The position numbers were made by a program, and so were the translations under genes. This document shows positions 10,289-63,686 of a stretch of 64,000 nucleotides of DNA, in pieces. Location of the stretch: positions 92 through 64,091 of the forward strand of contig CAYMVY010000002.1 of assembly GCA_964394405.1 (NCBI GenBank), in the 5' to 3' direction. The first letter of the stretch is position 1. Each line of letters starts with the position of its first letter. Source of the DNA: an uncultured Gammaproteobacteria bacterium (GTDB taxonomy: Bacteria; Patescibacteriota; Patescibacteriia; Magasanikbacterales; UBA922). Below the pieces are notes generated by a model. It did not search any database and was not told where the DNA came from. It saw only the letters and a list, made by a program, of their open reading frames with translations.

Positions 10289-10828
10289 ATGCCATCTCCA
10301 CTCAAAAAAGTTTCAGAAGAAATATTGCATGAAAATCCCTGGTGGAGATATAAGCATGATATTTTTTCTTTTCCTGATGGTAAAGAGGGGAGTTATTATT
10401 ATGGAGAGACATATGGTATGTCTATCATTGTTCCAATTTTGCCCGATGGGCGATTGGTGATGGTAAAACAATATCGATATTTAAATGACAGATACAGTAT
10501 TGAATTTCCTGGTGGAGGAATAAAAAAGGGAGAAGCCCCTTCGGCTGTTGCTAAGCGAGAATTGATGGAAGAAACTGGATTTTCTGCCAAAGAATTTATT
10601 AATATTTCAAATTTTGAACCTCACAATGGATTGTTCCTTGATTCGACTCATGTATTTATTGCCAAACAAATTTCACAAATTGATACTCATGAACCAAAGG
10701 GTGATGAGACAGAATTTATCGAAATCTTGCTGCGTCGACCAGATGAGATAGATCAGTTGATTCGGAATAATGAAATTTGGGATGGACAGACGCTCGCAAC
10801 GTGGGCAGTGGCACGGTATTATGTATAA
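10289..10828 (+). CDS. NUDIX hydrolase
   Basis: Nudix box GGGIKKGEAPSAVAKRELMEETG. Confidence 0.8.
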   Translation: MPSPLKKVSEEILHENPWWRYKHDIFSFPDGKEGSYYYGETYGMSIIVPILPDGRLVMVKQYRYLNDRYSIEFPGGGIKKGEAPSAVAKRELMEETGFSAKEFINISNFEPHNGLFLDSTHVFIAKQISQIDTHEPKGDETEFIEILLRRPDEIDQLIRNNEIWDGQTLATWAVARYYV

Positions 10829-11931: not shown

Positions 11932-12807
11932 ATGAAAATACTTATTCTCGGTAATGGATATATCGCGAAGCGCTGTGCGAAAGCATGGGCCAACGCGGTA
12001 CATGATCCTACAAAAATATATTCGAAAGAAGATGTTATTGTGTTAATCGAAAAACACCATCCTGATGTAATACTTAACGCTGCGGGCGTGCGTGGAAAAC
12101 CCAATGTTGACTGGTGTGAGACTCATCAGCTCGAAACTATTGTTGGTAATACTAAACTTCCAATTCTCATTGCAGAAGCATGTCAGGAAAAAAATGTGTA
12201 TCTTCTGCATATTGGCTCTGGTTGTATTTTTTATGGCGATTCTCCGCATCCGGATAAGAAATGGCGCGAGAATGATATGGGAAATCCGACAGATGTGACC
12301 TATTCTCGAACGAAATGGGCAGCTGATCTGGTGCTTTCTACTTTGCCAAATACCGGTATTGCTCGAATCCGCATGCCGATTGACTGGATTCCCGCACCTG
12401 ATAATCTGATTAACAAACTCACGTCGTTTTCGAAAGTGATTGATGTTGAAAATAGTGTGACTATTCTTGATGACATGGTTGAGGTTTTTTATAAATTACT
12501 TGAGAAAAAAGCAGAAGGAATTTTTCATGTAACTAATCCTGGAACTTTGAAGCACAGAGAGATTGTTGGTTTATATGAAGAAATAGTTGATTCTGCACAC
12601 AAGAATGAGTGGATTAGTAATGATGATCTGGTAACGCAGGGGCTTGCAACTAAGGGTCGATCGAATAATTTTCTAGCTTCAGAAAATCTCGGAAAGATTG
12701 GTATTGAAATGCGCGAGGTAAAACAAGCAATTCGAGACACTATGGAAAAATATGCTAAGGCAAAAAAAGATGGATTGCATTGGGAAGAATTTCTGACAGT
12801 TGAATAA
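11932..12807 (+). CDS. dTDP-4-dehydrorhamnose reductase-like NAD(P)-dependent epimerase/reductase
   Basis: MKILILGNGYIAK Rossmann-like N-terminus and a YSRTK catalytic motif. It sits immediately downstream of rfbB. Confidence 0.65.
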   Translation: MKILILGNGYIAKRCAKAWANAVHDPTKIYSKEDVIVLIEKHHPDVILNAAGVRGKPNVDWCETHQLETIVGNTKLPILIAEACQEKNVYLLHIGSGCIFYGDSPHPDKKWRENDMGNPTDVTYSRTKWAADLVLSTLPNTGIARIRMPIDWIPAPDNLINKLTSFSKVIDVENSVTILDDMVEVFYKLLEKKAEGIFHVTNPGTLKHREIVGLYEEIVDSAHKNEWISNDDLVTQGLATKGRSNNFLASENLGKIGIEMREVKQAIRDTMEKYAKAKKDGLHWEEFLTVE

Positions 12808-12824
12808 ACAGTATATATCTCATA

Positions 12825-12853
12825 CAAACCTTCTTATCAGAGAGGGTTTTTTG
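12825..12853. terminator. Terminator-like hairpin followed by a T-run after the rmlD-like gene
   Basis: caaaccttcttatcagagagggttttttg. Confidence 0.5.
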
Positions 12854-12970
12854 TTTACCATTGACACCAGACCGGAAAAGTGATATTTTTTTTAATCTTG
12901 TCCATTTCGGATCGGATCCCTATATGCCTAGGGTAATCGGCTATACTGCATTACAGGAGAGGGTGCCACC

Positions 12971-13591
12971 ATGGCACATAATTCTTCGTGGATCGAGTGG
13001 TTCAATACGCAGTGTATCGTTTCGTCGATGATCGTCGTCCCGAAGCCTATTCAGACCGTGCGTGGATGGGTGATGGATCTTCTTCGGGGATGGTTCGGTC
13101 GGACGGATGGTAAGTTCTTCCAGATGGTCGGGTTCGAGATCTCGGTGCCGAAGCCTGGACAGCGGGAGATCCCGAGCTGGGACCAGCCTCTGATCCAGGA
13201 GGTGGGCGAGGGAGCTCTCGGACTTCTCAAGGTCCGGGGAGAGGATCTGTACCTGGTCTCTGCCAAGGCCGAGCCGGGCAACAAGTCCAGAGGTCGGGTC
13301 CTCCTCGCGCCTAGCCTGCAGGCTTCCCGCTCCAACCTCGAGCAGGCGCATGGTGGCACCCTGCCGCCGCGTGCCGAATTCGCTCGAGAGTCGGGCGTCA
13401 AGTGGGTCGACTTCCTCAAGGATGGTGGCCGCTTCTTCGAGAGCACCAACCAGGCCGCGGTGATCGAGGTCGACTACTTCCATCCGAACTCGAACGAGCG
13501 ATGGTTCAGTCGCTACGAGCTCAGGGAGGCTCTCCTTCGCGGTGTGTGCAACGCACACCTTCGAGAGCTGCTCGCGCTCGCGTTCATCTGA
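12971..13591 (+). CDS. Single-domain NDP-hexose 2,3-dehydratase-like protein (Hexose_dehydrat family; Nudix-like fold), high-GC, with SD AGGAGAGG
   Basis: Motifs recalled for the TylX3/EvaA/EryBVI family: GKFFQMVGFEISV, WDQPLIQEVGEGALGLL, LVSAKAEPGN, LAPSLQASRSN..HGG, DGGRFFESTNQAAVIEV. It is 206 aa, half of the usual two-domain enzyme. It shows ~60% GC against a ~40% background. Confidence 0.6.
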   Translation: MAHNSSWIEWFNTQCIVSSMIVVPKPIQTVRGWVMDLLRGWFGRTDGKFFQMVGFEISVPKPGQREIPSWDQPLIQEVGEGALGLLKVRGEDLYLVSAKAEPGNKSRGRVLLAPSLQASRSNLEQAHGGTLPPRAEFARESGVKWVDFLKDGGRFFESTNQAAVIEVDYFHPNSNERWFSRYELREALLRGVCNAHLRELLALAFI

Positions 13592-13603
13592 GATAGAACG
13601 CTC

Positions 13604-13716
13604 GTAGATGTTCTTTTGTGGCCGTATCGGGGGGAGATACATCTCGATACGGCATCTGCAAAAAAGCCTTTCTTCAAGGGCTTTTTTGTTTTCAAGTTTA
13701 TTGATAATAGGCTTGA
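13604..13716. repeat. Left copy of a ~110-bp direct repeat flanking ORF 13773..14324; contains a palindrome and terminator-like hairpin
   Basis: gttcttttgtg...ccgtatcg/cgatacgg palindrome...acggcatctgcaaaaaagcctttcttcaagggcttttttgtttt...tattgataataggcttgac aligns with 14323-14455. Confidence 0.7.
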
Positions 13717-13775
13717 CTTTTTTGTTATATATGCTAATATCCTCTGTCCATCTGACCAGAAGGAGGTTCGAAATG
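13714..13775 (+). promoter_or_regulatory. Canonical sigma70-like promoter (TTGACT N15 TAATAT) and SD AAGGAGG upstream of ORF 13773
   Basis: ttgacttttttgttatatatgctaatat, then ccagaaggaggttcgaaATG. Confidence 0.55.
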
Positions 13776-14324
13776 GACGGGGCAATGTATGAGATACAAC
13801 AGGCAGAAATAGTTCGGGCGCTGAAAATGCTTCCGAACGGGAATGGTCCGCTGCCACACGACATCTTCGTTCAGATCGCACGCGCGTGGTACCTCATCGC
13901 CTTCGAGGCCGTACTCTTGCGCAAGGGGCAGGGTGGCATCGAGGTCTATCTGACTCAACGCGATCTGAGGGACGCGTTCTACCCTGGGGAGTGGCATGCG
14001 CCGGGTTCCATTCTCCTGCCTCGTGAGGAGGATGCTGACGTGGCTCGGCGGCTCGGCAAGAGGGAGTTCAAGAGCCCGATCACGGACAGCTCGTTGGTCG
14101 GGTGCAAGTTCCACCAAGAAGCACGGGGGTGGATGCTCTCGATGATCTTCCTCACCACGGTTCCGGACCTGTCGCACGCTGGTGGCACCTGGTACCCGGT
14201 CGACCGTCTGCCGAAGAATACCGTCTCGTCCCATGTGGACTTCATCATCCCCATGGCAGTTGCGGCCTTCAAGCGGCGGCACGGGTGGCGTGCCTGGGTC
14301 GGGAAGCTGCTCGGTCTGGTGTAG
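13773..14324 (+). CDS. High-GC Nudix-fold-like hypothetical protein (degenerate Nudix box)
   Basis: PGEWHAPGSILLPREEDADVARRLGKREF approximates GX5EX7REUXEEXGU but is off-register. GC content is high. It has a strong SD and its own promoter. Internal ATG at 13773 was chosen over the tracked 13608. Confidence 0.55.
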   Translation: MDGAMYEIQQAEIVRALKMLPNGNGPLPHDIFVQIARAWYLIAFEAVLLRKGQGGIEVYLTQRDLRDAFYPGEWHAPGSILLPREEDADVARRLGKREFKSPITDSSLVGCKFHQEARGWMLSMIFLTTVPDLSHAGGTWYPVDRLPKNTVSSHVDFIIPMAVAAFKRRHGWRAWVGKLLGLV

Positions 14325-14455
14325 TCGTTCTTTTGTGAAAAATTAGGGGTTGCCCTACCGGAGTGAAATAATCTTCGGTACGGCATCTACAAAAAAGCCT
14401 TTATTTTAAGGGCTTTTTTGTTTTACAAAAGCCTATTGGTTTGATAGGATTACCC
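14323..14455. repeat. Right copy of the ~110-bp direct repeat flanking ORF 13773..14324
   Basis: gtcgttcttttgtg...taccgg..cggta palindrome...acggcatctacaaaaaagcctttattttaagggcttttttgtttta...tattggtttgataggattac. Confidence 0.7.
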
Positions 14456-14488
14456 TGTATATGCGTTATACTCTATAACTTATTTTTT

Positions 14489-15553
14489 ATGTTAGATTCA
14501 CTTACTCAAATTAAAAAAATTGATACTGAAAACATGCTCGGCAGTTTGCAACTACTCCATACACAAGTAGCAGAAGTTGCTCAGAATGCAGAGGGTTTGA
14601 CTATCCCTTCAGCGTATAAAAAAATTGACCGAATAGTAGTTTTTGGCATGGGTGGATCTGCTCTTGGTGGGCATATTATTCAATCCTTATATCGAAAAGA
14701 ATTGAAATACCCACTTGAGATTGTGAATGGGTATGAAGTGCCTGGGTATGTGAATGCAAAAACATTGGTTATTTTATCCAGCTATTCTGGCACGACTGAA
14801 GAAGTATTATTTGTAGCTGAACTTGTGCGGGCACGAAAAGCAAAGATTGTGGTAATCAGTGCGGGCGGTGATTTGGCACAGTTTGCACAGAAACACAAAT
14901 ATCCGGCTTTGATTTTTTCAACTGAGAATAATCCCTGTGGATCTCCACGTATGGGTCTCGGATATTCAATCATTGGACAGTTGATTCTTCTTTCAAAATT
15001 TGGTGTTGTAAAAATTTCATCAAAACAAATTCAAAACATTATTAAGGTGCTTGCCGAGTATGACACACTCTATGGTGTTCTTACTCCAGAAAAAGAAAAT
15101 TTTGCAAAGCAATTGGGGAGAAAGACGATTGATCGAAGTGTATGGTATGTGGGAAGTGAACATCTACTTGGGAGCGCACATACCGCAGCAAATCAGATGA
15201 ATGAGAATGGAAAACGTATGAGCGGATATTTTGCATTACCTGAACTCAACCATCATTTGATGGAAGGTATGATGTATCCGAAGACAAATAAGAATACGTT
15301 ACTTTTTGTCCTGATTGAATCATCCTTGTATTATGCTCGCGTGCAGAAGCGATACGAAGTAACGAGAAAGGTGTTGGAAAAGAATCATATTGCACATACA
15401 TTGTATCGTGTAAAAGAAACTGATGCGTTATTGCAGGCATGCGAATGTTTGGTATTTTTCAGTTATGTGAGTTATTACTCAGGACTCTTGAAAAAGATTG
15501 ATCCGACTGCGATTCCGTTTGTGGATTATTTTAAGCGTGAACTGTCAAAATAG
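14489..15553 (+). CDS. Bifunctional phosphoglucose/phosphomannose isomerase (SIS domain, PGI/PMI family)
   Basis: Tandem SIS-domain signatures: IVVFGMGGSALGG and a second VWYVGSEHLLGSAHTAANQMNENGK. Archaeal-type PGI/PMI architecture. Internal ATG 14489. Confidence 0.7.
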   Translation: MLDSLTQIKKIDTENMLGSLQLLHTQVAEVAQNAEGLTIPSAYKKIDRIVVFGMGGSALGGHIIQSLYRKELKYPLEIVNGYEVPGYVNAKTLVILSSYSGTTEEVLFVAELVRARKAKIVVISAGGDLAQFAQKHKYPALIFSTENNPCGSPRMGLGYSIIGQLILLSKFGVVKISSKQIQNIIKVLAEYDTLYGVLTPEKENFAKQLGRKTIDRSVWYVGSEHLLGSAHTAANQMNENGKRMSGYFALPELNHHLMEGMMYPKTNKNTLLFVLIESSLYYARVQKRYEVTRKVLEKNHIAHTLYRVKETDALLQACECLVFFSYVSYYSGLLKKIDPTAIPFVDYFKRELSK

Positions 15554-15632
15554 AACACGGATGACACGGGTCTAACGGATTTTATTGCATTATCCGTGAT
15601 AACCCGTGTTACCCGTTCAATCCGCGTTCTAT
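15551..15632. repeat. Array of ~9-bp units (AACACGGAT / ACCCGTGTT types) arranged convergently, between the PMI and GT2 genes
   Basis: aacacggat gacacgggt ctaacggatt | atccgtgat aacccgtgtt acccgttca atccgcgttc. A homologous array with opposite arrangement lies at 31869-31958. Confidence 0.65.
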
Positions 15633-15643
15633 TAATTAAGATT

Positions 15644-22080: not shown

Positions 22081-23388
22081 ATGGCGACTTATATCATCAA
22101 AGGCGGAAAGAAACTCAAGGGTTCTATTGCGGTTGGTACTGCAAAGAATTCTGCCTTGGGATTGCTTTCTGCAGCAGTAATGCTCAAAGGAAAAGTGACT
22201 TTTCGCGACATGCCTCGGATTGAGGAGGTGTATCGATTTATTGAAATCTTGCAGAGTATCAATGTATCGTGCGAGTGGACTGCGGATCACACGCTAGTTA
22301 TCGATAGTTCAAAAAAATTGAATTTGGATACGCTTGATAAACAAGCATCAATGAAAATTCGATCTTCATTACTTTTGCTCGGATCGCTTGCTTCAGTTGT
22401 TCCCTCATATCGATTGTATCGATCAGGTGGTTGTAAACTCGGAGAGCGTACGGTGCGTCCACATCTCTATGCGCTTGAGAAATTTGGCGTCAAGATCGAG
22501 ACTACTAATGAACAATATCAAGTAACCAATCAAAAATTGCGCGCTGCGTATGTGGTCATGTATGAAGCAGGGGATACGCCGACTGAAAATGCGATTATGG
22601 CTGCTGCACGCGCAGAAGGAATTACTACTATCAAATTTGCTTCGGCAAATTACATGGTTCAGGATTTGTGTTATTTTTTGGTCAAAGCAGGTGTCAAAAT
22701 TTCAGGTATTGGTACACAGACTCTCACTATTGAGGGGGTGAAAAAATTGAAATCAGATTTTGAATATCATGTAATGCCAGATCCAGTTGAAGCTATGGCA
22801 TTTATTGCAACGGCGATTACTACACATTCTCCCCTTACTATAGAAAATTGTCCGATTGATTTTCTTGAGCTTGAGCTTGAAAAACTCTCGGTCATGGGGC
22901 AACGCTACTCCGTCACCAAAGAGCGGGTATCGAAAAATGGAAAATTTCGAATTGTTGATATTACTATCACACCTTCTGAATTGACTGCATTGCCTGACAA
23001 AATTCATGGCTTGCCTTTTCCAGGAATTAATATTGATAATGTTCCTTTTTTTGTTCCCATTGCTACTCAAGCAAAAGGGCGGACGCTCATCCATGACTGG
23101 ATGTGGGAAAATAGGAGTGTGTATTACCTGGAATTCCAGAAAATTGGAGGAAAAATTACGTTGCTTGACCCACATCGCGTCTTTGTCGAAGGTCCTACCA
23201 AGCTTACAGGTCGCAAAGGCGAAATAGTCGCTCCTGATGGAATTCGTCCAGCTATGGCGCTTTTGATCGGAATGCTCGCTGCTAAGGGCGTTTCGCAGCT
23301 ACAGGATATTTATGTAATCGAGCGGGGATATGAGGATTTGGAATCGAGACTTCGATCGATCGGAGCTGATATTACGCGTACAGAATGA
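22081..23388 (+). CDS. murA: UDP-N-acetylglucosamine 1-carboxyvinyltransferase
   Basis: EPT-family fold. MATYIIKGGKKLKGSIAVGTAKNSALGLL. Length 435 aa. Confidence 0.9.
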   Translation: MATYIIKGGKKLKGSIAVGTAKNSALGLLSAAVMLKGKVTFRDMPRIEEVYRFIEILQSINVSCEWTADHTLVIDSSKKLNLDTLDKQASMKIRSSLLLLGSLASVVPSYRLYRSGGCKLGERTVRPHLYALEKFGVKIETTNEQYQVTNQKLRAAYVVMYEAGDTPTENAIMAAARAEGITTIKFASANYMVQDLCYFLVKAGVKISGIGTQTLTIEGVKKLKSDFEYHVMPDPVEAMAFIATAITTHSPLTIENCPIDFLELELEKLSVMGQRYSVTKERVSKNGKFRIVDITITPSELTALPDKIHGLPFPGINIDNVPFFVPIATQAKGRTLIHDWMWENRSVYYLEFQKIGGKITLLDPHRVFVEGPTKLTGRKGEIVAPDGIRPAMALLIGMLAAKGVSQLQDIYVIERGYEDLESRLRSIGADITRTE

Positions 23389-25191: not shown

Positions 25192-25217
25192 AAAAATTCA
25201 CCGAGAGGTGAATTTTT
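25192..25217. terminator. Rho-independent terminator (ATTCACC-GAGA-GGTGAAT + T-run)
   Basis: aaaaattcaccgagaggtgaattttt. Confidence 0.8.
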
Positions 25218-25311
25218 GGTACTATTGACAAAAATTATAAAAAGGTGTAGTGTGATTTGTTTCGTGCTGGAAAAACACTATTCGTACTTTGTGGTACAAA
25301 GGATTGGATAC

Positions 25312-25821
25312 ATGAAGCGGCCTATTCCTAGTTTTCCTCCTGTGAATGGTGAGATGCTAATGCCCTGTGAACCGGATGAACTCCCAGATGATCTGCAGGG
25401 TGCATTACCGGATCCCTGTCAGGAGACTGCTGCACATACGTTCCTTCGTAACTCCCGTAACAAGGGTTGTTGGGTTGGTATGAGTGGGTCTGATTTTTTG
25501 GACCATCTTAACAGCTTTAGCAACCAGCGTATCTGGAAGTTCGTGTCCAAGAAGAAGTGGTATCAGTGGCTGTGCCGATCCAAGATCCATCCCCTGACTG
25601 TTCGCTGGGAACATCGGGGGGAAGGTCTGAATTATTCGGGTACTGACACCGATACGCTGTACGAGACGGACTTCTTTAGAGTCGGAATACACCGACTCAT
25701 CGAGTCACAAATGGTATTGCTCGTGCCAGGCAAGAAACCGGAAGCAACGATGATATTCCCGACGCCGCTTCTGGTCTCGACCCTCATGAAGCACCAAGCT
25801 CGCCAGCAAGTTCGCTCGTGA
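25312..25821 (+). CDS. Hypothetical protein in a high-GC islet with SD (AAGGA N8 ATG)
   Basis: GC clearly elevated. Followed by a GC-rich 15-bp-stem hairpin (25832-25867) lacking a U-tract. No family recognised. Confidence 0.5.
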   Translation: MKRPIPSFPPVNGEMLMPCEPDELPDDLQGALPDPCQETAAHTFLRNSRNKGCWVGMSGSDFLDHLNSFSNQRIWKFVSKKKWYQWLCRSKIHPLTVRWEHRGEGLNYSGTDTDTLYETDFFRVGIHRLIESQMVLLVPGKKPEATMIFPTPLLVSTLMKHQARQQVRS

Positions 25822-33297: not shown

Positions 33298-33402
33298 AAG
33301 CTCAAAACGTAAAACTCAAAGCTTAAAACTGGAACTAAAAACTCAAAATTTTAAGCTTTGAGTTATAGTTTTAAGTTTTGATATTTAAGCTTTGAGTTTT
33401 TT
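33298..33402. repeat. Palindromic AAACTCAAA/TTTGAGTT dispersed element, copy 2 (overlaps the 3' end of the NUDIX gene)
   Basis: ctcaaaacgtaaaactcaaagcttaaaactggaactaaaaactcaaaattttaagctttgagttatagttttaagttttgatatttaagctttgagtttt. Confidence 0.7.
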
Positions 33403-33802
33403 TTAAATACTCCTCAACAACAGCTCTTACATTTGGAGCACAATCTTCCGGTAGATCATTAATATCAAACCAGTTCCATTCAACAATATTTTCACCTGGT
33501 TTTATTTCTCCAATTCGCTTTGCAAGATAGTGGATAAGAATCACTAGTTTTTCTGGATGGTCTGGGCGATGTACGAGCATTGGTTTTAATGGTTGTATGA
33601 TTTCAACTTTAATTCCCATTTCTTCCATTACTTCACGTTTACATGCTTCTTCAAGTGAAATATCAAAAGATTCTACTTCTCCGCCAGGAAAAAGCCAGGT
33701 GGTAATTCGACCATTTTCTTTCTTCTCTTTATTAAGCAAAACTTTGCCATTTTCAATAATGACTGGTCCCGAGGCAATAATTGTTTGATCTGGTAGATAC
33801 AT
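33371..33802 (-). CDS. NUDIX hydrolase
   Basis: Nudix box GGEVESFDISLEEACKREVMEEMG. Confidence 0.8.
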   Translation of the reverse strand: MYLPDQTIIASGPVIIENGKVLLNKEKKENGRITTWLFPGGEVESFDISLEEACKREVMEEMGIKVEIIQPLKPMLVHRPDHPEKLVILIHYLAKRIGEIKPGENIVEWNWFDINDLPEDCAPNVRAVVEEYLKKTQSLNIKT

Positions 33803-33833: not shown

Positions 33834-34260
33834 ATGGCGAAATATCACAAGCTGGTTTTGGTTGACTTTCGGTGGGATGTATTGTACGCTTTTTTGCGGA
33901 TTTTGCCCGAAGTACGGGCCCGTCACCCAAGTACTGTGGAGGTCAGTTCATGTTCACCCTGGTGTGCGTTATGGGGTTGTGGACCCAGATCATGTATGTC
34001 CCGGACAAGGGGAGGAAGATTTCTCGTGCACGGGACCGCAAGGGTCGTTGGCACGTCGGAGGGGTGGGGCAGCTTCCGAGGGGGCACTGTCGGAAATTCA
34101 GGAAGCCGCGTTGAGTGGCTAGGAGTGGTAGATCTGGGAACAGATCTTAGCTCAGGAGCGCTTTCCTGGATCCATCATGTCGTCGACGGGGCTGTGCATC
34201 GCACGGTCCCGTCAGTTCTCTTAACCTATTTATTCGAGCCCTATCGGGCTTTTATTATTT
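33834..34260 (+). other. High-GC ~430-nt segment, probably noncoding, ending in an intrinsic terminator; candidate structured RNA or decayed foreign gene
   Basis: All three forward frames are open with R/G/S/W/C-rich translations, typical of non-coding GC-rich DNA. Terminator gagccctatcgggcttttattatttt at 34236-34260. No RNase P, tmRNA or SRP signature motifs could be matched by eye. Confidence 0.35.
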
Positions 34261-34359
34261 TACCAAATAAAGTATTGACTTTATAATAATGTTCATATAT
34301 CCTATTGCGGTGCTTAGCTCAACCTCGGTCGAGTTGTGCCGTCAACCAGAGGAAACATC

Positions 34360-34566
34360 ATGTCAGATTCAGAAAGAAATGATCAGCCGCGCCCTCGGAG
34401 TCGCCGTCGAGTCCATACTGCCGGAGCTTTCGATCACATTCAACGTGTGCTCGTCGACGAAGAGCAGAACATGCGACCCTATCGGGACGTAGGGCATCAG
34501 CAGTCCGGAGTGCGTCTCAATGATGCATGCATCATTCCCAACCAGCGGCCGGACTACAAGTCCTGA
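34360..34566 (+). CDS. Small high-GC hypothetical ORF (68 aa) with SD AGAGGAAACATC-ATG
   Basis: GC-rich. Followed by a perfect 14-bp-stem hairpin ccaggaagactgtg/cacagtcttcctgg (34582-34614) without a U-tract. Overlaps an antisense ORF, so coding status is uncertain. Confidence 0.3.
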   Translation: MSDSERNDQPRPRSRRRVHTAGAFDHIQRVLVDEEQNMRPYRDVGHQQSGVRLNDACIIPNQRPDYKS

Positions 34567-34654
34567 TCCGTGATCCTCTTGCCAGGAAGACTGTGCTCTG
34601 CACAGTCTTCCTGGCTCCTTCGCCAAATTAAGAGAAGCTCCTAATAGGAGCTTC

Positions 34655-36352
34655 TTATGTTATTTCTTTAATCATGTATGTACCTTCTTTTTTGTAGCCA
34701 AGCTTTTCATAATATCCACGTACACCTACTCCGGAAATCACAGCGAGTTTTTTTACTTTATTTTCTTTGCTAATACGCTCAGCTTCAGCCATTAGTTTTT
34801 TACCGTATCCTTTGTGTTGACTACCGATTGTTTTTGTTTTTCCGATTCCGATCATTTGTCCATATACGTGTAGTTCTCGGATGAAAGCGCTGTTTGTTAG
34901 CTCGGGCATGAGTTTTTTTAAGTTTTCTAAGTTGGCTGAGTTAGCTAAGTTTTCTGAGTGGGGAATGCGTAAACGTAAGAAACCGTAGACGGCGATGCGA
35001 TTTTTGTCTTCCATTGAAATGAAATATTCTGTTCCGCCAATAGTTTCATATGTGTCAACAAAAATTTGTGGTTCTTCGTTTTCATTAATATTATCTTTTT
35101 GTCGATAAATTTCTCGGCAACGCAGACATTCGCAATGCTTTCCTTCTTTCTTTAATTGATATTCAAGCATCTCGCGCAAGTTGGTAATGATATTTCCATT
35201 CTCAATTTCTGTTGCAGGGATATCGCGAATGAGTCGAGAAATGCGGCAATAGCGGGGAGTCGCGAGTTTCATTTCGAGCAATGCCTTGAATAATCCTTCA
35301 TCGCCATACGATTTATATCGTCCATCAAGAAACCACTGATACAGCTCTGCGGATTTAATAACCGTGTTTGGATAAATTTTGATCATGTCTGGGCGAAGGC
35401 CTGGATCCATGAATATTTCTTTGTACATTTCTACATCATGCTCAGGGCTACTCCCTGGTAAATCAGGCATGAAATGCAAATCTACTTTGAAACCCGCTTC
35501 GCGAAGTAGGTAGATTGCCTCGCGGAATTGTTGTACTGTATGTCCGCGTTTGATTAATTCAAGAATTTTATTGTCTGTTGCCTGCAGACCTAATTCAATT
35601 CGGGTACAACCCTGAAGGCGCATATGGTGAATCGTTTTTCCCGAAATTGCGTCTGGTCGAGTCTCAAGTGTGAGACCAATAATACGATGTCCAGTAGATT
35701 CATTAATCGTTTGCTCTTTATCAAGAGCTTCCTGTAATTCAGTAAGAGGTCTATCATTCCAATATTCCTCACTGGTTGGACCAATTGGAACTTCACGGCT
35801 GAAATCATTGCATGCTTTGAATGATTCGAGAATGAACCAGTATTGATATTTAAGCGGATATGCATTCCATGTCCCACCTTTTAAAATATACTCAATTTTG
35901 TCAGTAGGGTGACCATTCACCTCAAGCATTTCGATGCGTCTCTTCATCTGTTCGTATGGGCTAAAATCAAGCCGTAGTGCTCGTGCTGCGGCGGGTTCGG
36001 TTGCAATATAGCTTTTGGGCATGCGGAGCTCAGTAGGGCAGTATACGCATTTTCCGGGGCAGGTATAGGGCTTTACCAATGAGGTTATAATTACTACTCC
36101 AGAAAGGGTACGTACATTTGCTTTGCGAAGAAAAAATTCCATTTGTTCGTCTGGTTCTACACTTTTCTTTTCGAGTAGACTCTGGTAGGCTATGAGCAGT
36201 TGTTGGTTTGCAGGTTGTTTGATTTTTAATTTCGAAGCGCCAAGTCTTTTTGCATCATCAAAATCCTCTTTGGTTTGAGGCTTGTATGCGACGATATATT
36301 CCATTAATTTTTCTGCTATTTCATTCATACGTATGTCGAAAGTTGACTTCAT
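34655..36352 (-). CDS. Elp3-like radical SAM / GNAT acetyltransferase (bacterial Elp3 homologue)
   Basis: Radical-SAM CxxxCxxC (CPGKCVYC). C-terminal GNAT (GYGKKLMAEAERI). 565 aa. It contains an in-frame 9-bp tandem insertion (ENLANSANLENL). Confidence 0.75.
   Translation of the reverse strand: MKSTFDIRMNEIAEKLMEYIVAYKPQTKEDFDDAKRLGASKLKIKQPANQQLLIAYQSLLEKKSVEPDEQMEFFLRKANVRTLSGVVIITSLVKPYTCPGKCVYCPTELRMPKSYIATEPAAARALRLDFSPYEQMKRRIEMLEVNGHPTDKIEYILKGGTWNAYPLKYQYWFILESFKACNDFSREVPIGPTSEEYWNDRPLTELQEALDKEQTINESTGHRIIGLTLETRPDAISGKTIHHMRLQGCTRIELGLQATDNKILELIKRGHTVQQFREAIYLLREAGFKVDLHFMPDLPGSSPEHDVEMYKEIFMDPGLRPDMIKIYPNTVIKSAELYQWFLDGRYKSYGDEGLFKALLEMKLATPRYCRISRLIRDIPATEIENGNIITNLREMLEYQLKKEGKHCECLRCREIYRQKDNINENEEPQIFVDTYETIGGTEYFISMEDKNRIAVYGFLRLRIPHSENLANSANLENLKKLMPELTNSAFIRELHVYGQMIGIGKTKTIGSQHKGYGKKLMAEAERISKENKVKKLAVISGVGVRGYYEKLGYKKEGTYMIKEIT
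34919..34958. repeat. 9-bp tandem units (RAGTTNKCT x4) within the Elp3-like coding region
   Basis: aagttttct aagttggct gagttagct aagttttct gagt, translated in frame as ...ENLANSANLENL.... Confidence 0.6.
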
Positions 36353-37481: not shown

Positions 37482-37850
37482 GTGTGGAGGTATATACGTT
37501 CTCACAATCGAGGAGAATTTAAGGATCGGCGACAAGACTTGCGCACATTTTCGACTAAAGCAGAACGAGTTTTGTGGCAAGAATTGAGAAAGCGAAAACT
37601 CAGATATAGATTTCGTCGGCAGTTTGGCATTACGACATATATTGTCGATTTTTATTGTCCATATTTGTGGCTTATTATTGAAGCTGATGGACCAATTCAT
37701 TTGAAACAAAAGGAACAAGATAAAAAACGCGAAGATTTTTTAAAATCTCGCGGATATACGGTTATTCGATTTACAAATGATGAAGTGTTGTTTGAACGAG
37801 AACGGGTTGTTGAGGAGATTAGGCGAGTGTGTCGAGAATTGGATGTTTAG
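37482..37850 (+). CDS. DUF559 / Vsr-like endonuclease-fold protein (GTG start, SD AAGGAGGGG)
   Basis: LWQELRKRKLRYRFRRQFGITTYIVDFYCPYLWLIIEADGPIH...GYTVIRFTNDEV matches the DUF559 pattern. Confidence 0.75.
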   Translation: MWRYIRSHNRGEFKDRRQDLRTFSTKAERVLWQELRKRKLRYRFRRQFGITTYIVDFYCPYLWLIIEADGPIHLKQKEQDKKREDFLKSRGYTVIRFTNDEVLFERERVVEEIRRVCRELDV

Positions 37851-39129: not shown

Positions 39130-39678
39130 TTACTCGAATAACATTTTTTTAAATTCTTCAAGTTGTCCTTTGTAATACAAGGTAAGAATATCAAGCGACA
39201 GATCTTTTGATTGGAAATTTGGATCGATGATAATTTCCATAAATTCATCAAAAGATACCAGCATTGGTGTGATTTTTTCTCCAGGATCGAGATTTTGTTC
39301 TGCAATTTTTTTGCATTCGCGTGCAATAAACGTTTGGATTGTCCAATCAATTCGAGTATATAAATTTTTTGTTGCCAATAGTTCCCATTGTTCTGACGCA
39401 TACCCTATTTCTTCAAGCATTTCTCGTTTTGCTGCATTGAGTGGTTGTTCATCCTTATCTTGTTGACCACCCACGAGACCATATCGTTCAGGATAGGTGG
39501 GTTGCGTCTCTTTTACTATTATTATCTTATCTTCAATAATTGGAAGTATTTGTACACTACCTGGTCGTCTGAGCATTTCAAATGTTTTGACGCTTCCATC
39601 AAATTGTTTTTGATCCCAGTGGTAGGCATCGAAGATTATTCCTTCGAATACTTTTTTTGCGTCTTTGGGTATGGGCAT
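39130..39678 (-). CDS. NUDIX hydrolase
   Basis: Nudix box GLVGGQQDKDEQPLNAAKREMLEEIGY. Confidence 0.8.
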   Translation of the reverse strand: MPIPKDAKKVFEGIIFDAYHWDQKQFDGSVKTFEMLRRPGSVQILPIIEDKIIIVKETQPTYPERYGLVGGQQDKDEQPLNAAKREMLEEIGYASEQWELLATKNLYTRIDWTIQTFIARECKKIAEQNLDPGEKITPMLVSFDEFMEIIIDPNFQSKDLSLDILTLYYKGQLEEFKKMLFE

Positions 39679-47864: not shown

Positions 47865-48212
47865 ATGAATATCTCAATTCATGCAAATAATATCGAGCTT
47901 ACAGACGCTATCCGAGAATATACTGAGAAGAAGATACAGGGTTTGGTAAAATATTTTGATCGAATTACCAATGCTGCGGTGGATATTGGTCTTACATCAA
48001 ATCATCATCAAAAAGGAAAAATTTATTATGCAGAGGTTAATGTACATCTTCCTCAGGGACAGATGGTTCGAGTGAGAAAAGAAGCGGAAGATTTGTATAA
48101 AGCAATTGATAAAGTCAGAGATCATCTGAAGCTTGAGCTTGATGAAATTAAGGATAGGATGCGTGCCAAAGATCGTGAAGTATTACGAGATGCAAAGGGG
48201 TATCAGGAATAA
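47865..48212 (+). CDS. hpf: Ribosome hibernation promoting factor (HPF/RaiA family)
   Basis: MNISIHANNIELTDAIREYTEKKIQGL...YAEVNVHLPQGQMVRV matches the YfiA/HPF fold sequence pattern. Confidence 0.85.
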   Translation: MNISIHANNIELTDAIREYTEKKIQGLVKYFDRITNAAVDIGLTSNHHQKGKIYYAEVNVHLPQGQMVRVRKEAEDLYKAIDKVRDHLKLELDEIKDRMRAKDREVLRDAKGYQE

Positions 48213-48419: not shown

Positions 48420-51206
48420 ATGTCATTTTTACACAAATTGTTTCCAGATCAGAATAAGAAGGTGATCAAAAGTCTGCAACCATTGGTTGATCGTATCAAT
48501 CAGCTTGAAGTTGAATTCGAAAAAATATCAAACGATGGAATAAAGGATAAAACTACTGAGTTCAAATCCAGGCTTGAAAAAGGTGAGACACTTGATGATC
48601 TATTACCTGAAGCATTTGCGACGGTGCGTGAAGCAGCAAAGCGTACACTCGGTATGCGACACTATGATGTGCAGCTCATCGGAGGTATCACGCTTCATCG
48701 TGGACGAATTGCTGAAATGCGCACGGGTGAAGGAAAAACACTCACGGCTACACTTGCAGTCTATCTTAACGCGCTTTCAGGCAAAGGCGTGCATTTGGTT
48801 ACCGTGAATGATTATTTGGCAAAACGCGATGCGGTGTGGATGGGGCAGATTTATGATTTTTTGGGAATGTCTATTGGAATTGTGCAGAATCAGCGGGTAA
48901 GTTTTGTCTATGACGCAAGCGCAAAAGCTACTGAAGAGGGAAGTGAAGCGGACAAAGAGCGAGATGAGGAAGGTAGTTTTAAAGTTGAAAATGAATATTT
49001 GAGACCAGCCTCTCGTCAAGAGGCGTATCGCTGTGATATTACGTACGGAACTAATAATGAATTTGGGTTTGATTATCTTCGCGACAACATGGTGCAGCGA
49101 ATCGAAGATATGGTAATGCGTCCAGGGAGTGAAATGAGTTATGCAATTGTTGATGAAATCGATTCTATCTTGATTGACGAAGCGCGAACTCCATTGATTA
49201 TTTCTGCTCCTGCTGAAGAAGCAACTGATCAGTACTATCGATTTGCTGATTTGGTAAAAATGCTTACGTTGAATGAAGATTATAATCTAGATGAAAAATT
49301 ACGAAGTGCAACTCTGACCGGAGAGGGTATTGCAAAATTTGAAAAATGGTTGAATGTCGATAATATCTATGTCGAAGGTGGTATCCGAACAGTGCATCAT
49401 ATTGAGCAGGCTCTCAAAGCAGAATTTTTATTCAAGAGGGATAAAGATTATATCGTTGATGGGAAAGAAATTATTATTATTGATGAATTCACGGGACGCA
49501 AGATGCCGGGTCGACGATATTCTGAAGGATTGCATCAGGCGATCGAAGCAAAAGAGCGGGTACCGATTCAGAAAGAGAGTAGAACGCTTGCAACAATTAC
49601 GTTCCAGAATTTATTCAGAATGTATGACAAGCTGGGCGGAATGACAGGTACCGCAAAGACCGAAGAAGAGGAATTTTTCAAGATTTATGGACTGGAAGTG
49701 ACAACGATTCCGACCAATAAACCTGATAATCGCAAAGATCATCCTGATCGGATTTACAAAAATAATAAAGGAAAATACAAAGCCATTGTAGAAAAGGTGC
49801 AGGAAGCTCGGGCAAAGGGGCAGCCCGTACTTATTGGTACGATTTCGGTTGAAAAGAATGAAGAATTGAGTGCCTACCTCTTTGGTCAGGGAATTGAACA
49901 TGAAATTTTGAATGCAAAGAATCATGAACGTGAAGGAGAAATTATCGCGCAGGCCGGTCGTCCAGGTGCCATCACTCTCGCTACCAACATGGCAGGACGT
50001 GGTGTCGATATCAAACTTGGCGGCGTCCCTGCAGTCGAGGAGGATGTGAAGAAAGTGGTAGAGGCTGGAGGATTGTTTGTCCTCGGAACTGAACGACATG
50101 AGTCACGACGCATCGATAATCAGCTTCGCGGACGAAGTGCTCGTCAGGGAGATCCGGGTGAGACTCAGTTTTTTGTGTCTGCAGAAGATGATCTCATGCG
50201 CGTCTTTGCGGGTGATCGATTGAAGAGTGTGATGACACGGTTCAATATACCGGACGACATGCCAATTGAGCAGAAGATGATTACTCGAATTCTTGAAAGC
50301 GCACAGAAAAAAGTAGAATCACATCATTTTGATACTCGAAAACATTTGCTTTCATATGATGACGTATTGAACAAGCAGCGTGATGTCATCTACAAGAAAC
50401 GTCGAGAGATTCTTGATTCTGCTAAGCGAGAAATTGATGCTGCAGCGGGGGATAAGGATACACTTCCTCCAGAACTCGCACCTCGACCACTTCGGGATAT
50501 TATTCTCGAAATGGTAGATCAGGAAATTGAGACTGTGGTATCGATGCATACTAGTGCTGAAGATGAGACAGAGTGGAATACCAAAGAGATTGTCGAGAGT
50601 ATGTCTGCGATGATGCCTCTTGAAAATACTGATAAATCAAAAATCGAATCAGTTATCGCTTCTGCAACAAAGGAAAATAAGAATCCGATTGAGGTTAGAA
50701 ATGAGGTTGTAGAAAATCTAGTTGCCAATGCTCGTCGTGCGTATGATGCTTTTGTAGCTTCGCTTGAGAAAATCCAACCAGATGCAAAACTTCGTACTCA
50801 GATGGTCTCTGAAGTGGAGCGCGGGGTGTTGCTTCGCACTATTGATATGATGTGGGTTGATTATCTGATCACTATCGATCATCTTCGCGCGGGGATTGGA
50901 TTGCAGGGCTATGGACAGAGAGATCCATTGGTTCAGTACAAACAGGAGAGTTTCCATCTTTTCAATCGACTGCTTTCGGGAATTCAGCGGGAAGTCGCAA
51001 ATACGATATTCAAAGTTCATGCAGGAATTCAGCTTTCTCCATCGGTTATGGCGACTGATGTCATGACACTGGGTGGCGCGCAGAAAACTGCAAAATCAGA
51101 AGTGTCTGGATCTGGAGTAGGGAAACCGGGGGATGGGAAAGTAGGGCGGAATGATCCCTGTCCGTGTGGTTCTGGCAAAAAGTATAAGAAGTGTCATGGG
51201 GCGTGA
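48420..51206 (+). CDS. secA: Preprotein translocase ATPase SecA
   Basis: DEAD-like motor ([32 protein letters not shown]). C-terminal zinc finger [14 protein letters not shown]. Confidence 0.95.
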
Positions 51207-51207
51207 T

Positions 51208-51474
51208 ATGGCAATAATTAAGAAGAAAATAGTACCTCAGTATTTCGAAGCGGTAGTTTCTGGGAAAAAGAAGGCAGAATTACGTTTGAATGATTTCAAT
51301 ATTGAAGAAGGGGATACTCTTGTGTTGGAAGAGTGGAATCCTGAGACAAAAGAATATACAGGTCGGAAAATAGAGAAAAAAGTGACCCATGTTGCCAAAT
51401 TTAAAATGGATAACTTTTTTTGGTCGAAAGCTGAAATTGACGAGAAGGGTATTCAGATTATTTCTCTTGAATAA
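51208..51474 (+). CDS. DUF3850/ASCH-like (PUA-fold) small protein
   Basis: KKKIVPQYFEAVVSGKKKAELRLNDFNIEEGDTLVLEEW. ATG 2 nt after the secA stop. Confidence 0.55.
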   Translation: MAIIKKKIVPQYFEAVVSGKKKAELRLNDFNIEEGDTLVLEEWNPETKEYTGRKIEKKVTHVAKFKMDNFFWSKAEIDEKGIQIISLE

Positions 51475-52132: not shown

Positions 52133-52552
52133 TTACACTTCATGAATTTTTTCAAGCAACTTCTGATGCAGATTCTCGTGAGTAAAATTGCCTGGAATAT
52201 ATAGTGGGGTTACTTTTGGAAGAGTGAGTTTTTCGAGTAGTTGATTTTTGAGATTTTCTGGAGCAGCCACTACAACATTGTGATATTCAGCGGCACCATA
52301 TAACTCTCTCGTAATGCGTACAACTGTATCCAGATGTTTTCTGGTTTCTTCGTCCCACATTTCGTTTGTTTTCAGATTTCCACCAGTGGTAGGACCTTTG
52401 TTTGATCGTCCTTCTTTGTCACTAAATTGTGCTTTTTCTTCGACTGCAGTTTCCAATTGTATCATACGGTTCTCACTTTCTACACGGTACCATTGAGACT
52501 CATGAGAATTGGTTATCAGGAGCAGGAATGGGTGCACGATTTGTGGATGCAT
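52133..52552 (-). CDS. Hypothetical protein (Host_attach/baeRF-like motif VVVAAPENLKNQL)
   Basis: Weak resemblance to the host-attachment protein family. Low certainty. Confidence 0.35.
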   Translation of the reverse strand: MHPQIVHPFLLLITNSHESQWYRVESENRMIQLETAVEEKAQFSDKEGRSNKGPTTGGNLKTNEMWDEETRKHLDTVVRITRELYGAAEYHNVVVAAPENLKNQLLEKLTLPKVTPLYIPGNFTHENLHQKLLEKIHEV

Positions 52553-59384: not shown

Positions 59385-59507
59385 TGACAAACTTATGTCT
59401 TTTTGGTAGATTCATCTATCAACTATTGTCTACTGCGCTGGCTGTATAGTATGTACATCTGGCGCAGCCGGCAATCCCGCCATCAGAGGCTGCCAAGGAG
59501 AATCGAA

Positions 59508-59840
59508 ATGATTCACGTGTTCCGTCAGATGAGTGAATGGCATCACCGGTATCCTGAAAAGTGCGAAAAGACGATCCCTACTGATACAACGGTGGGTTCG
59601 GCTGAGTTCGCTCGTCTGCCTGACCTGGGACGTTGTCCCTCCTGTGTCGGGTATCTCTACGCCAAGGGGCGAGGACATCACGAGAGCATCTTCCATGCAC
59701 TCTGTCCGGTCGGAAGGCATCTGACTACCGTCTGCGGGAAGTCTGTCGGGATCAATGAGATTCCTCTCAAGGAGTTCCACATGCTCCCGCCTGAGCGTAA
59801 GTGTGAGAAGTGCGCTGAGCTCGTTCGTTCTTTCAAGTAA
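59508..59840 (+). CDS. High-GC Cys-rich (zinc-ribbon-like) hypothetical protein with SD AAGGAG
   Basis: CEK..CPSC..C..C..CEKC cysteine pattern. aaggagaatcgaaATG. GC clearly above background. Confidence 0.5.
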   Translation: MIHVFRQMSEWHHRYPEKCEKTIPTDTTVGSAEFARLPDLGRCPSCVGYLYAKGRGHHESIFHALCPVGRHLTTVCGKSVGINEIPLKEFHMLPPERKCEKCAELVRSFK

Positions 59841-63418: not shown

Positions 63419-63686
63419 AGATACTTGTAGACAAAAAAATTCCCCTGAGCTGAGGAATGTCTATGTTGGTACATGGCGGTATCAAAAAATACCTATGTAC
63501 TGGTTCCTGCTCGGGATAACACACATTCTACAAGATCGGACTTTTACCGTTGCGGCACAGTCAGGGAATTACACCCTGGTTCCAGTAGAATAGGTTTTTG
63601 TTGTAAATAACAGGTAAATTGTATCAGGTATGTGCCTGATGTCAAACAGTCATAACTGTTGTTAAAAAAGGGATTTTTTGATATCC

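Follow-up and report, generated by a model that had tools for sequence, protein, structure and literature searches.

Repeated two-hairpin 3' modules behind GC-rich Nudix-fold genes at a glycan-cluster site in Patescibacteria

Our data indicate that two neighboring direct repeats within a 64-kb stretch of DNA, referred to here as the window, are probably paralogous 3'-end modules of independent transcription units, in which copies of an intrinsic terminator (T) would serve as homology for RecA-type gain and loss of genes. Each module contains two adjacent hairpins, H1 and T, and the module is conserved behind five gene families in ten loci. It stands at the end of each gene in a small array whose members are GC3-rich and have the Nudix fold, placed between an rmlD-like gene and pgi/pmi in the glycan/sugar-nucleotide cluster of a Patescibacteria lineage. 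The closest named relatives of the array-bearing lineage are labelled Candidatus Magasanikbacteria, and we found nothing in the literature on this locus or on GC-rich Nudix islands in Patescibacteria.

We propose that each gene of the array forms its own transcription unit, composed of a sigma-70-like promoter, a Shine-Dalgarno leader, the ORF, H1 and T. T would terminate transcription; the most likely role of H1 is to protect or define the 3' end of the mRNA. All copies of T, about 34 nt long, are nearly identical, and T could therefore act as portable homology: unequal or inter-genome homologous recombination between T copies would delete, add or swap whole gene units. The expected outcome is a cassette-like, species-variable array that operates without a site-specific recombinase. 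We infer termination, RNA stabilisation, RecA-type recombination and the direction of events (loss versus gain) from sequence comparison.

The repeat pair and the genes it closes

An earlier note on this DNA described a repeat of about 110 bp, at roughly 80% identity, after the stops of ORF 12971 and ORF 13773, and called for a pairwise alignment. Global alignment of 13604-13716 with 14323-14455 gave 93 matches in 109 aligned columns (85%; 82% when measured on the shorter copy) and a single 14-nt indel between the copies, and its score of 53.5 is far above that of 500 shuffles (7.1 ± 2.4, maximum 17.5), so the repeat is real and its identity holds. Within the hairpin-plus-terminator core the two window copies are 80% identical. 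The letter block reported in both copies is likewise present: GTTCTTTTGTG is exact at 13610 and 14327, ACGGCATCTRCAAAAAAGCCTTT has exactly two occurrences in the window compared to 0.01 expected, and AAGGGCTTTTTTGTTTT is exact at 13676 and 14408 and nowhere else in the 64 kb. The repeat has two copies only in the window, adjacent to each other, and no tandem repeats were found. The TATTG..ATAGG tails that had been described as shared are not similar beyond chance (p about 0.06-0.07), and the repeat proper therefore stops at the T-tract (about 13606-13692 and 14323-14424). For lack of significance we also dropped the idea that these tails are the relic of a duplicated pgi promoter.

The order of elements within a module is a GTTCTTT motif, the 10-15 bp hairpin H1, and T (AAAAAAGCCTTT-loop-AAGGGCTTTTTTGTTTT). 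Alignment, folding and a covariance model place the first copy, the 3' module of gene A, at 13606-13692 of the forward strand, the strand of all features given below unless antisense is stated. Its GTTCTTTTGTG motif lies at 13610-13620, H1 at 13621-13653 and the T stem-loop at 13658-13689, with the T-tract running to 13692; the covariance model matches 13598-13701 with 81 bits. The second copy, the 3' module of gene B, was delimited by the same three means at 14323-14424, with the motif at 14327-14337, H1 at 14352-14384 (loop TGAAATAAT), the T stem-loop at 14389-14421 and the T-tract to 14424 (covariance-model match 14342-14433, 94.9 bits).

The left flank of the array is a conserved rmlD-like reductase gene of normal composition (11932-12807, GC 0.39; Pfam RmlD_sub_bind, NCBIfam rmlD below cutoff), and L002, L003, L004, L008, L011 and L012 have the same gene on the left side of their arrays. 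The terminator-like hairpin that follows it (12826-12849, AAACCTTCTTATCAGAGAGGGTTT plus a T-run) is not a copy of T by sequence, and the module covariance model has no match there. A promoter-like site, TTGACA-17-TATTTT (12861-12889), begins the 5' region of the first GC-rich gene (12861-12970), whose leader motif TCCATTTCGGATCGGATCCCT also occurs in L012, where it lies in the leader of E264, a different gene. Gene A (12971-13591) encodes 206 aa with a single NDP-hexose 2,3-dehydratase (Nudix-like) domain and has a GC of 0.61 and a GC3 of 0.76. Its PF03559 domain is complete (E = 4.6e-27, profile positions 4-201 of 203). Characterised NDP-hexose 2,3-dehydratases carry two PF03559 domains in about 450-500 aa; family A is half the size of these two-domain enzymes, and its 22 relatives are all 192-253 aa long. 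Gene A has an orthologue with 57% identity at this site in L004, and identity to actinomycete enzymes is about 30%.

Gene B is preceded by a promoter-like site with an upstream TG, TTGACT-16-TAATAT (13713-13740), and a short leader with the Shine-Dalgarno sequence AAGGAGG (13713-13772 in all). The earlier note had this promoter carried by the repeat, with a 15-nt spacer. The site does exist and is retained ahead of the B orthologues of L002 and L003, but the spacer is 16 nt and the predicted promoter belongs to gene B's own 5' region, just outside the repeated core.

Gene B itself (13773-14324, GC 0.61, GC3 about 0.77) encodes 183 aa, and its product is predicted by structural modelling to have a divergent Nudix alpha/beta/alpha fold. 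The AlphaFold2 model has a pLDDT of 77.6 and a pTM of 0.75, the 50 best Foldseek matches in the PDB are all Nudix domains (E from 8e-7), and a profile search of PDB sequences returned only Nudix/MutT proteins (best E = 1.3e-3); Pfam NUDIX is below threshold on this protein. The Nudix box is degenerate, reading PGSILLPREEDADVARRLGKREF compared to GX5EX7REUXEEXGU, with the glutamates of REUXEE largely replaced, and among the best structural matches are the sensor Nudix domains of AraR and NrtR, which are non-catalytic. At profile level family B has 906 representatives, of which the named members are all Patescibacteria.

To the right, a promoter-like site with an upstream TG, TTTACA-17-TAGGAT, overlaps the end of T (14422-14488) and is kept upstream of pgi/pmi in all related loci. 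The bifunctional phosphoglucose/phosphomannose isomerase gene (14489-15553) is the conserved right flank, again of normal composition (GC 0.38; Pfam bact-PGI_C and SIS, NCBIfam, synteny). Neighboring genes in the window have a GC3 of about 0.30 compared to 0.76 and 0.77 in A and B. Antisense ORFs at 12941-13864, 13734-14282 and 13979-14386 have no family match and are taken as by-products of high GC, and a TGTCCATCTGAC motif common to the gene B leader and another GC-rich islet is not above chance.

The same site in related genomes

We found the same site, from the rmlD-like gene to pgi/pmi, in nine related loci from metagenomes and metagenome-assembled genomes (L002, L003, L004/L005, L007, L008, L009, L011, L012 and L013), two of which are labelled Candidatus Magasanikbacteria. 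The site holds one or two GC-rich genes drawn from five families, A to E, with H1 and T after each. Promoter-like sites precede each gene and are conserved along with it in orthologous loci. In L007, L011 and L013 an extra T, lacking any H1, stands before the first GC-rich gene. An independent assembly, L001, encodes both window proteins exactly in an identical gene layout.

Module copies number one to three per genome, all at one locus. The exact T pattern occurs in 7 contigs among 185,579 species genomes, and the examined matches adjoin pgi/pmi or a GC-rich gene of the locus. The further copies that had been sought elsewhere were not found: the 64-kb window has none besides the two, and in other genomes all examined matches of the exact pattern belong to this locus. 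A metagenome scan with pgi/pmi yielded two loci only, and one of the two, L014, is distantly related and has no cassette there.

These comparisons bear on the two readings that the earlier note had offered. Its alternative, in which gene cassettes each close with a conserved 3' element, is supported: in the nine related loci every GC-rich gene ends in the module, and differences in gene content between genomes start and stop at the terminator. The other reading, a footprint of site-specific insertion, is not supported, since we read the copies as paralogous 3' ends of two adjacent genes and not as target duplications; no integrase, recombinase or transposase was found in the scanned window ORFs or beside the related loci, and neither an attC-type R''/R' pair nor terminal inverted repeats were found around the ORF.

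The junctions between gene units point to T. The window spacer from B to pgi matches the L002 B-to-C spacer up to T and the L002 C-to-pgi spacer beyond T. In the sequence that precedes gene D, L004, L008 and L013 show no relation before T and become homologous exactly where T starts. Presence/absence boundaries between genomes coincide exactly with T, and recombination at T, which rests on three between-species comparisons, would account for them. The flanks are also mosaic in identity (62% for rmlD and 92% for pgi compared to L002, and 92% for rmlD compared to L012), which argues for the site being a recombination junction. The colinear gene order A<B<C<D is compatible with differential loss; as proof of an ancestral four-gene array it is uninformative, since 18 of 32 random orientations also fit.

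Families A and B share a common GTTCTTT/H1 subtype although their proteins have no detectable sequence similarity. The hairpin of window gene A has a likeness of 0.71 to that of window gene B compared to 0.47 to its L004 orthologue, and this higher likeness within the genome suggests exchange between copies inside it.

Our data do not agree with the earlier description of a single foreign gene. ORF 12971-13591 equals ORF 13773-14324 in its high GC, and the segment therefore comprises two genes. Recent foreign origin is also contradicted, since the named members of the 183-aa family are all Patescibacteria and, between orthologues, high GC3 is retained despite saturated synonymous sites; gene B's family is therefore not a recent import. 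Across the loci the GC3 of genes at the site is 0.51-0.82 compared to 0.3-0.5 in flanking genes and 0.2-0.5 in the host genomes, the Nudix-fold genes lie 12-25 GC points above the host genome across lineages, and high GC3 is also seen in homologues from other Patescibacteria classes. An origin from phage or plasmid was rejected: the only plasmid matches of gene A are from actinomycetes at 30% identity, gene B has no match in phage and viral collections, and the T pattern is absent from IMG/VR. A more ambitious version of our reading, which we consider rather unlikely as a whole, is an integrase-free cassette system in which T lets Magasanikbacteria-like lineages shuffle fast-evolving Nudix-fold genes at one glycan-cluster site, the high GC3 being a by-product of GC-biased gene conversion or a result of selected codon usage and not of recent foreign origin.

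Structure and conservation of T and H1

The earlier note had reported a palindrome and a terminator-like hairpin in each copy. Folding agrees, with two adjacent hairpins in both window copies (z = -5.4 and -6.1) and in 7 of 7 modules folded (z = -4.6 to -6.1). T consists of a stem of 13-15 bp (A6GCCUUU / AAGGGCU6) closed by a loop of 3-6 nt, with a UUUU(G)UUUU run behind it, and is positioned 65-70 nt past the stop codons. These are the features of a Rho-independent (intrinsic) terminator, and T is predicted to have terminating activity. A simple terminator scan missed T because its U-tract pairs with the upstream A-tract.

Across copies T is nearly invariant in sequence, more than terminator function requires, and its stem may have another, sequence-specific role; since L007-L013 were found by the exact T pattern, this invariance is partly ascertainment, with only the window, L002, L003 and L004 independent of that search. 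One such role would be regulatory: T would act in the DNA as a sequence-specific site, either a palindromic operator or a UP-like element, through which the downstream promoters are coordinated, and it would be conserved for this regulation, with termination secondary. The near-perfect palindrome, a stem that is almost invariant while the adjoining H1 evolves by compensatory change, the -35 boxes (TTGACA or TTTACA) that overlap or closely trail the T-tract in most copies, and the T that precedes the first GC-rich gene without H1 in L007, L011 and L013 are all consistent with such a site. However, the distance from T to the -35 box ranges between 0 and about 20 nt, a spread unusual for an operator, the array has no linked regulator gene, and the conserved U-G pair together with the A-tract/U-tract architecture is typical of terminators. 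Moreover, at L023, a locus further removed, the sequence of T has diverged through compensatory changes that kept its structure. We consider a primarily regulatory T unlikely.

H1 is a structured RNA on the sense strand whose pairs are kept by compensatory substitutions. In an alignment of fourteen modules from ten loci, compensatory changes were found at 9 of the 10 H1 pairs, and 93.6% of cells are paired. Over the whole module structure, 30 cells are changed on both sides compared to 9.3 ± 2.4 in shuffles, none of 500 shuffles matched the observed pairing or covariation, and 33-61% of cells pair in slid-partner controls compared to 96.9% observed. H1 contains G-U and U-G pairs and T a conserved U-G pair; the opposite strand would carry C-A mismatches in their place, which identifies the sense strand as the one on which the structure is read.

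The covariation in H1 and the strong folding z-scores would also suit a functional RNA, with GTTCTTT-H1-T acting as a 3'-UTR-derived small RNA or as a read-through (attenuator) switch for the next gene. The A/B subtype has features that might be expected of one: its single-stranded GTTCTTT...GGG motif and its TGAAATAAT loop are conserved in the window, L002 and L004, and partly in L003 and L023. Yet the C, D and E modules have neither motif nor conserved loop, the downstream genes possess promoter-like sites of their own, and the folds show no conserved antiterminator pairing; pairing of GTTCTTTTGTG, whether with T's 5' arm or with the ACAAAAG that follows T, appeared in a single fold, was not conserved and was set aside. 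Rfam has no family for the module at gathering thresholds in the whole window, and at permissive E-values the best matches at the locus reach 24-28 bits compared to cutoffs of 47-70. A small RNA or attenuator therefore seems quite improbable to us.

Recombinase searches and known systems

Given the cassette-like appearance of the array, a site-specific system has to be weighed, in which H1 (or H1 and T) would be attC-like and the ORFs would be cassettes caught by a tyrosine recombinase encoded elsewhere. Each ORF does end in an imperfect palindrome whose structure is more conserved than its sequence, all genes are co-oriented, array content differs among genomes, and the repeats are homogeneous inside the array, as in chromosomal integrons. 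However, the integrase or recombinase that was sought nearby was found neither in the scanned window ORFs nor beside the related loci. Pfam scans of 60 of the 61 greedily called window ORFs of at least 100 aa (the exception being the 112-aa ORF 2102-2440) returned no integrase, recombinase or transposase, with that ORF and the genes at 22081-23388, 37482-37850, 47865-48212, 51151-51474 and 52133-52552 covered in part by precomputed tables at most, and for L001-L005 such tables show none up to 6-10 kb from the arrays. A regular-expression scan of both strands of 12701-14600 for the attC core pair RYYYAAC...GTTRRRY, 50-140 nt apart, found none; single core-like heptamers occur in that interval only at 12799, 13953 and 14491, none inside the repeats.

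An integron would hold mostly promoterless cassettes transcribed from Pc, and here a conserved sigma-70-like site precedes each gene. The junctions lie in T, not in H1, the families remain and diverge at one chromosomal site, and in the 7 genomes that carry the exact T pattern every examined match is at pgi/pmi or at a GC-rich gene of the locus. The G-U wobbles favor structure at the RNA level as well, which is not decisive since attC also folds single-stranded. We regard an integron-like system as very improbable. Nor is the footprint of a MITE- or IS-type element supported: the only inverted repeats around ORF 13773-14324 are the internal hairpins, with no terminal inverted repeats, and two copies in the window and 7 contigs in 185,579 genomes are not the many dispersed copies of such elements. 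A chance or recent functionless local duplication, or an assembly artefact, would fit two adjacent copies in the window and is scarcely credible, being refuted by the same proteins and layout in the independent assembly L001, by nine further loci of different sample origin that carry the orthologous module, and by H1 covariation.

Paralogous 3'-end modules that recombine through T would resemble several known systems in part. Like chromosomal integron arrays (e.g., the Vibrio cholerae repeats), the locus has co-oriented single-gene units that each end in a repeated 3' element of about 100 nt with an imperfect palindrome, content that varies among relatives, and repeats that are closer within a genome than between orthologues. 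Unlike them, it has no integrase, attI, Pc or R''/R' core sites, each gene has its own putative promoter and terminator, the junctions fall in a sequence-conserved terminator rather than a structured palindrome, and one or two genes occupy a fixed site inside a biosynthetic cluster. With 3' UTRs or terminators multiplied by tandem duplication and unequal crossing-over it shares direct repeats that end neighboring genes, units apparently lost or gained by homologous recombination, and membership of a single fold superfamily (Nudix). It differs in that the proteins show no detectable sequence similarity (A versus B) or resemble each other at the Nudix box alone, whereas the non-coding module reaches 80% identity within the genome and is near-invariant across species, and in that the family A domain (NDP-hexose 2,3-dehydratase) has an independent, wider distribution.

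Hypervariable O-antigen and capsule clusters are similar in their sugar-nucleotide/glycosyltransferase context, atypical GC, flanking genes of mosaic ancestry and species-variable content. Here, in contrast, GC is above that of the genome and not below it, the variable part consists solely of small Nudix-fold genes, and exchange would take place at internal repeated terminators and not in flanking housekeeping genes. REP/BIME sequences, Correia elements and paired uptake sequences in terminators also involve a repeated intergenic hairpin that doubles as a terminator and a stem conserved in sequence. Those elements are scattered, with copy numbers from tens to thousands, and a part of them carry terminal inverted repeats and target duplications, whereas here there are one to three copies at one locus.

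If our reading is correct, this locus would be a sequence-defined case of gene-unit turnover through repeated terminators without a dedicated recombinase. Its hosts are genome-reduced, uncultured, ultra-small Patescibacteria, in which the mechanisms of gene-content change are poorly known. Recent horizontal transfer does not suffice to explain away the compositional anomaly of the Nudix-fold genes, and population data from metagenomes could separate biased gene conversion from selection as its cause. Furthermore, GC-rich ORFs with long spurious antisense ORFs make this a type of region that may be mishandled by gene callers and by screens for contamination or horizontal gene transfer.

The repeat pair and the two GC-rich genes

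The window has a GC content of about 41% and represents core chromosome, with genes for ribosomal proteins, SecA/SecDF, Mur ligases, DnaB, and RecR. On its minus strand it also carries an AdoCbl-II (cobalamin) riboswitch (63525-63591; 44.6 bits vs a gathering score of 36.5) upstream of DUF4430/cobalamin-binding-like genes at 60667-63418. The repeats lie within a sugar-nucleotide and glycosyltransferase cluster in the order HIT, NUDIX, dehydratase, rmlD-like reductase (11932-12807), GC-rich ORFs, pgi/pmi (14489-15553), four GT2 glycosyltransferases, and nucleotidyltransferase. An independent assembly (L001) encodes the products of both GC-rich ORFs, proteins A (ORF 12971-13591) and B (ORF 13773-14324), exactly and in an unchanged gene layout. 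An inverted repeat at 15549-15633 (33-nt arms, 76% complementary, 19-nt spacer) covers the stop codon of pgi/pmi and the beginning of the glycosyltransferase gene that follows.

We found that the repeat described after the stop codons of genes A and B is real. Global alignment of 13604-13716 with 14323-14455 gave 93 matches in 109 aligned columns with one 14-nt indel, and its score of 53.5 was far above that of shuffled sequences (7.1 +/- 2.4). GTTCTTTTGTG is identical in both copies, while within the 64 kb neither the 23-mer ACGGCATCTRCAAAAAAGCCTTT nor the 17-mer AAGGGCTTTTTTGTTTT occurs outside these two copies. The TATTG..ATAGG tails that the earlier note had counted as shared show no more similarity than expected by chance (p about 0.07), and therefore the repeat proper spans approximately 13606-13692 and 14323-14424. 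Each copy forms two adjacent hairpins (folding z = -5.4 and -6.1). When a covariance model was derived from 14 element copies, it matched the window at these two places alone (94.9 and 81 bits); the next-best match, at 20.9 bits, is an ordinary terminator. Further copies were found nowhere else in the window, and the genome matches examined all lie at this locus.

The repeats had been taken to bracket a single foreign gene, B. Both ORFs, however, have a GC content of 61% and a GC3 of 0.76-0.77, while the GC3 of their neighbors is about 0.30, so that both look foreign and not just the bracketed one. Gene A encodes a single NDP-hexose 2,3-dehydratase domain (PF03559, E = 4.6e-27), which has a Nudix-like fold. 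Protein B has no Pfam match and a degenerate Nudix box; the 50 best PDB structure matches of its predicted model (pLDDT 77.6) are all Nudix domains, and the profile of its family matches Nudix/MutT chains in the PDB. A sigma-70-like promoter site and a Shine-Dalgarno sequence precede each ORF. An antisense ORF of 307 aa (12941-13864, minus strand) crosses gene A, the first repeat copy, and the start of gene B. No family match was found for it, it is best explained as a product of stop-codon scarcity in GC-rich sequence, and gene callers could wrongly take it up.

The hairpin-terminator module at related loci

Related loci with the same synteny were first reached through homologs of proteins A and B. 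In addition, a scan of 185,579 species genomes found the exact terminator pattern on only seven contigs, two of them labeled Candidatus Magasanikbacteria, with one or two matches per contig; every match examined adjoins pgi/pmi or a GC-rich gene of this locus. All nine related loci contain one or two GC-rich genes at the site (GC3 0.51-0.82), and these genes sort into five families: A, a half-size dehydratase; B, a 183-aa family; C and D, both Pfam NUDIX; and E, a 264-aa protein. The array is A-B in the window, B-C in L002, B-D in L003, A-D in L004, and C-D in L008; L007, L009, and L011 contain C, L013 contains D, and L012 contains E. Behind every GC-rich gene of the window and the nine loci stand a hairpin, H1, and then a terminator element, T, and therefore the two repeats of the window belong to a family of gene-end modules. 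Since this module closes every array gene across loci, we rejected the repeat pair as a duplication made by insertion.

In an alignment of 14 modules, H1 comprises 10 pairs, of which nine show compensatory changes; paired cells make up 93.6% of the total. None of 500 shuffles reached the observed pairing or covariation of the whole module, and the pairing signal was lost when partners were slid by 1-3 columns. H1 contains G-U and U-G pairs and T a conserved U-G pair; these would be mismatches on the complementary strand, which argues that the structure is used on the sense strand, in the transcript. T consists of an A-tract/GCC stem of 13-15 bp with a U-run behind it, and by this sequence it is built like an intrinsic terminator. 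The T stem, in contrast to H1, hardly varies. This invariance is partly ascertainment because L007-L013 were found through the T pattern itself; the stem is nearly invariant as well in the seven copies that were reached by way of proteins (window, L002, L003, and L004). In a more distant relative with 34% GC (L023/L024), the module follows a family-A gene and precedes pgi, with the sequence of T changed and its structure kept. Rfam returned no family match for the module.

Between promoter and start codon, family-C genes have a conserved leader of about 115-130 nt that contains CCTGGCATTCGCCAAAGAGG and TGATAGTGATATCAGAGG (L002 10680-10793; L007 1425-1538; L011, reverse strand). It could be a cis-regulatory RNA and is absent from the window. 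L004 and L005 contain a normal-GC NUDIX_4-like gene (L004 5901-6389, 162 aa) directly after rmlD and ahead of the GC-rich array, and NUDIX genes of normal GC also occur in the window (10289-10828, 33371-33802, and 39130-39678); the lineage is thus unusually rich in Nudix genes.

Age of the high GC content

At the profile level family B comprises 906 cluster representatives, and all named members are from Patescibacteria. Its homologs in other Patescibacteria lineages also lie in glycan clusters and are GC-elevated (0.51 vs 0.39; 0.47 vs 0.33). Family-A homologs have the same offset (0.62/0.53, 0.54/0.43, 0.61/0.40, 0.47/0.32), which is absent from a 32%-identical relative. Between the B genes of the window and L003, four-fold sites are saturated (identity 0.14) while a GC3 of 0.65-0.77 is kept in both, and the amino-acid composition of both is also shifted to GC-rich codons. 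The saturated sites with a GC3 that is still high, together with the GC-elevated homologs, argue that the high GC is a long-standing, maintained property and not the trace of a recent import.

A second GC-rich islet (33834-34650, GC up to 0.61) lies beside the minus-strand NUDIX gene 33371-33802. Its first half gave no convincing ORF, Pfam match, or Rfam match; its second half contains two hairpins, one GC-rich (about 34583-34615) and one terminator-like (about 34634-34656), together with a 68-aa ORF (34360-34566) and, at about 34275, a promoter-like TTGACTTTATAATAATG. Orphan ORFs with raised GC3 (0.54-0.60) and no Pfam family occur at 1012-1416, 25216-25821, and 59403-59840, each with a promoter-like site. 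ORFs 1012-1416 and 25216-25821, at least, end in a GC-rich hairpin and then a separate AT-rich terminator, a layout like that of the main locus in unrelated sequence.

Proposed exchange of array units

Direct repeats had been proposed as the footprint of site-specific insertion. Pfam scans of 60 of the 61 called ORFs of at least 100 aa in the window, and annotation tables for the 6-10 kb around the arrays of L001-L005, showed no integrase, recombinase, or transposase. The locus has no attC core pair and no terminal inverted repeats, and neither the terminator pattern nor gene B gave a viral or phage match. None of this points to a site-specific recombination system.

The junctions between array units lie at T. 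The B-pgi spacer of the window matches the B-C spacer of L002 up to T and the C-pgi spacer of L002 past it, so the switch falls inside the 34-nt T, and the window would thus be without gene C through an event with its junction there. In front of gene D, the sequences of L004, L008, and L013 (where D comes after A, C, and an ordinary gene, respectively) show no relationship until T begins; homology starts exactly at its first base and continues from there. On the left side, the window and L012 have in common rmlD (92% identity) as well as the promoter and a portion of the leader, past which stands gene A in the window and gene E in L012. When L002, L004, and L012 were compared with the window, rmlD was 62% and pgi/pmi 92% identical to L002, while rmlD was 92% identical to L012; since the closest relatives of the flanks differ, the chromosome is a mosaic at this site. 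Furthermore, the gene-A hairpin of the window is more similar to its gene-B hairpin (0.71) than to its L004 ortholog (0.47). Together, the T junctions, mosaic flanks, and within-genome hairpin likeness point to homologous recombination between T copies, by which array units may be lost, gained, or swapped. Such recombination would act both within one genome and between genomes.

No empty site, with rmlD directly followed by pgi/pmi, was found among close relatives. A distant relative (L014, pgi 56% identical) has neither cassette nor module ahead of pgi, while L023, from another lineage that shares the synteny, has gene A and the module there, a contrast that weakly hints at long-term gain or loss at this site. 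The proposal of cassettes each ending in a conserved 3' element holds for the shared H1 and T ends and is modified in that the cassettes are independent transcription units. Our data support, in this modified form, that the shared hairpin-terminator ends of these units may serve as recombination junctions in a small array of GC3-rich Nudix-fold genes whose content varies among species.
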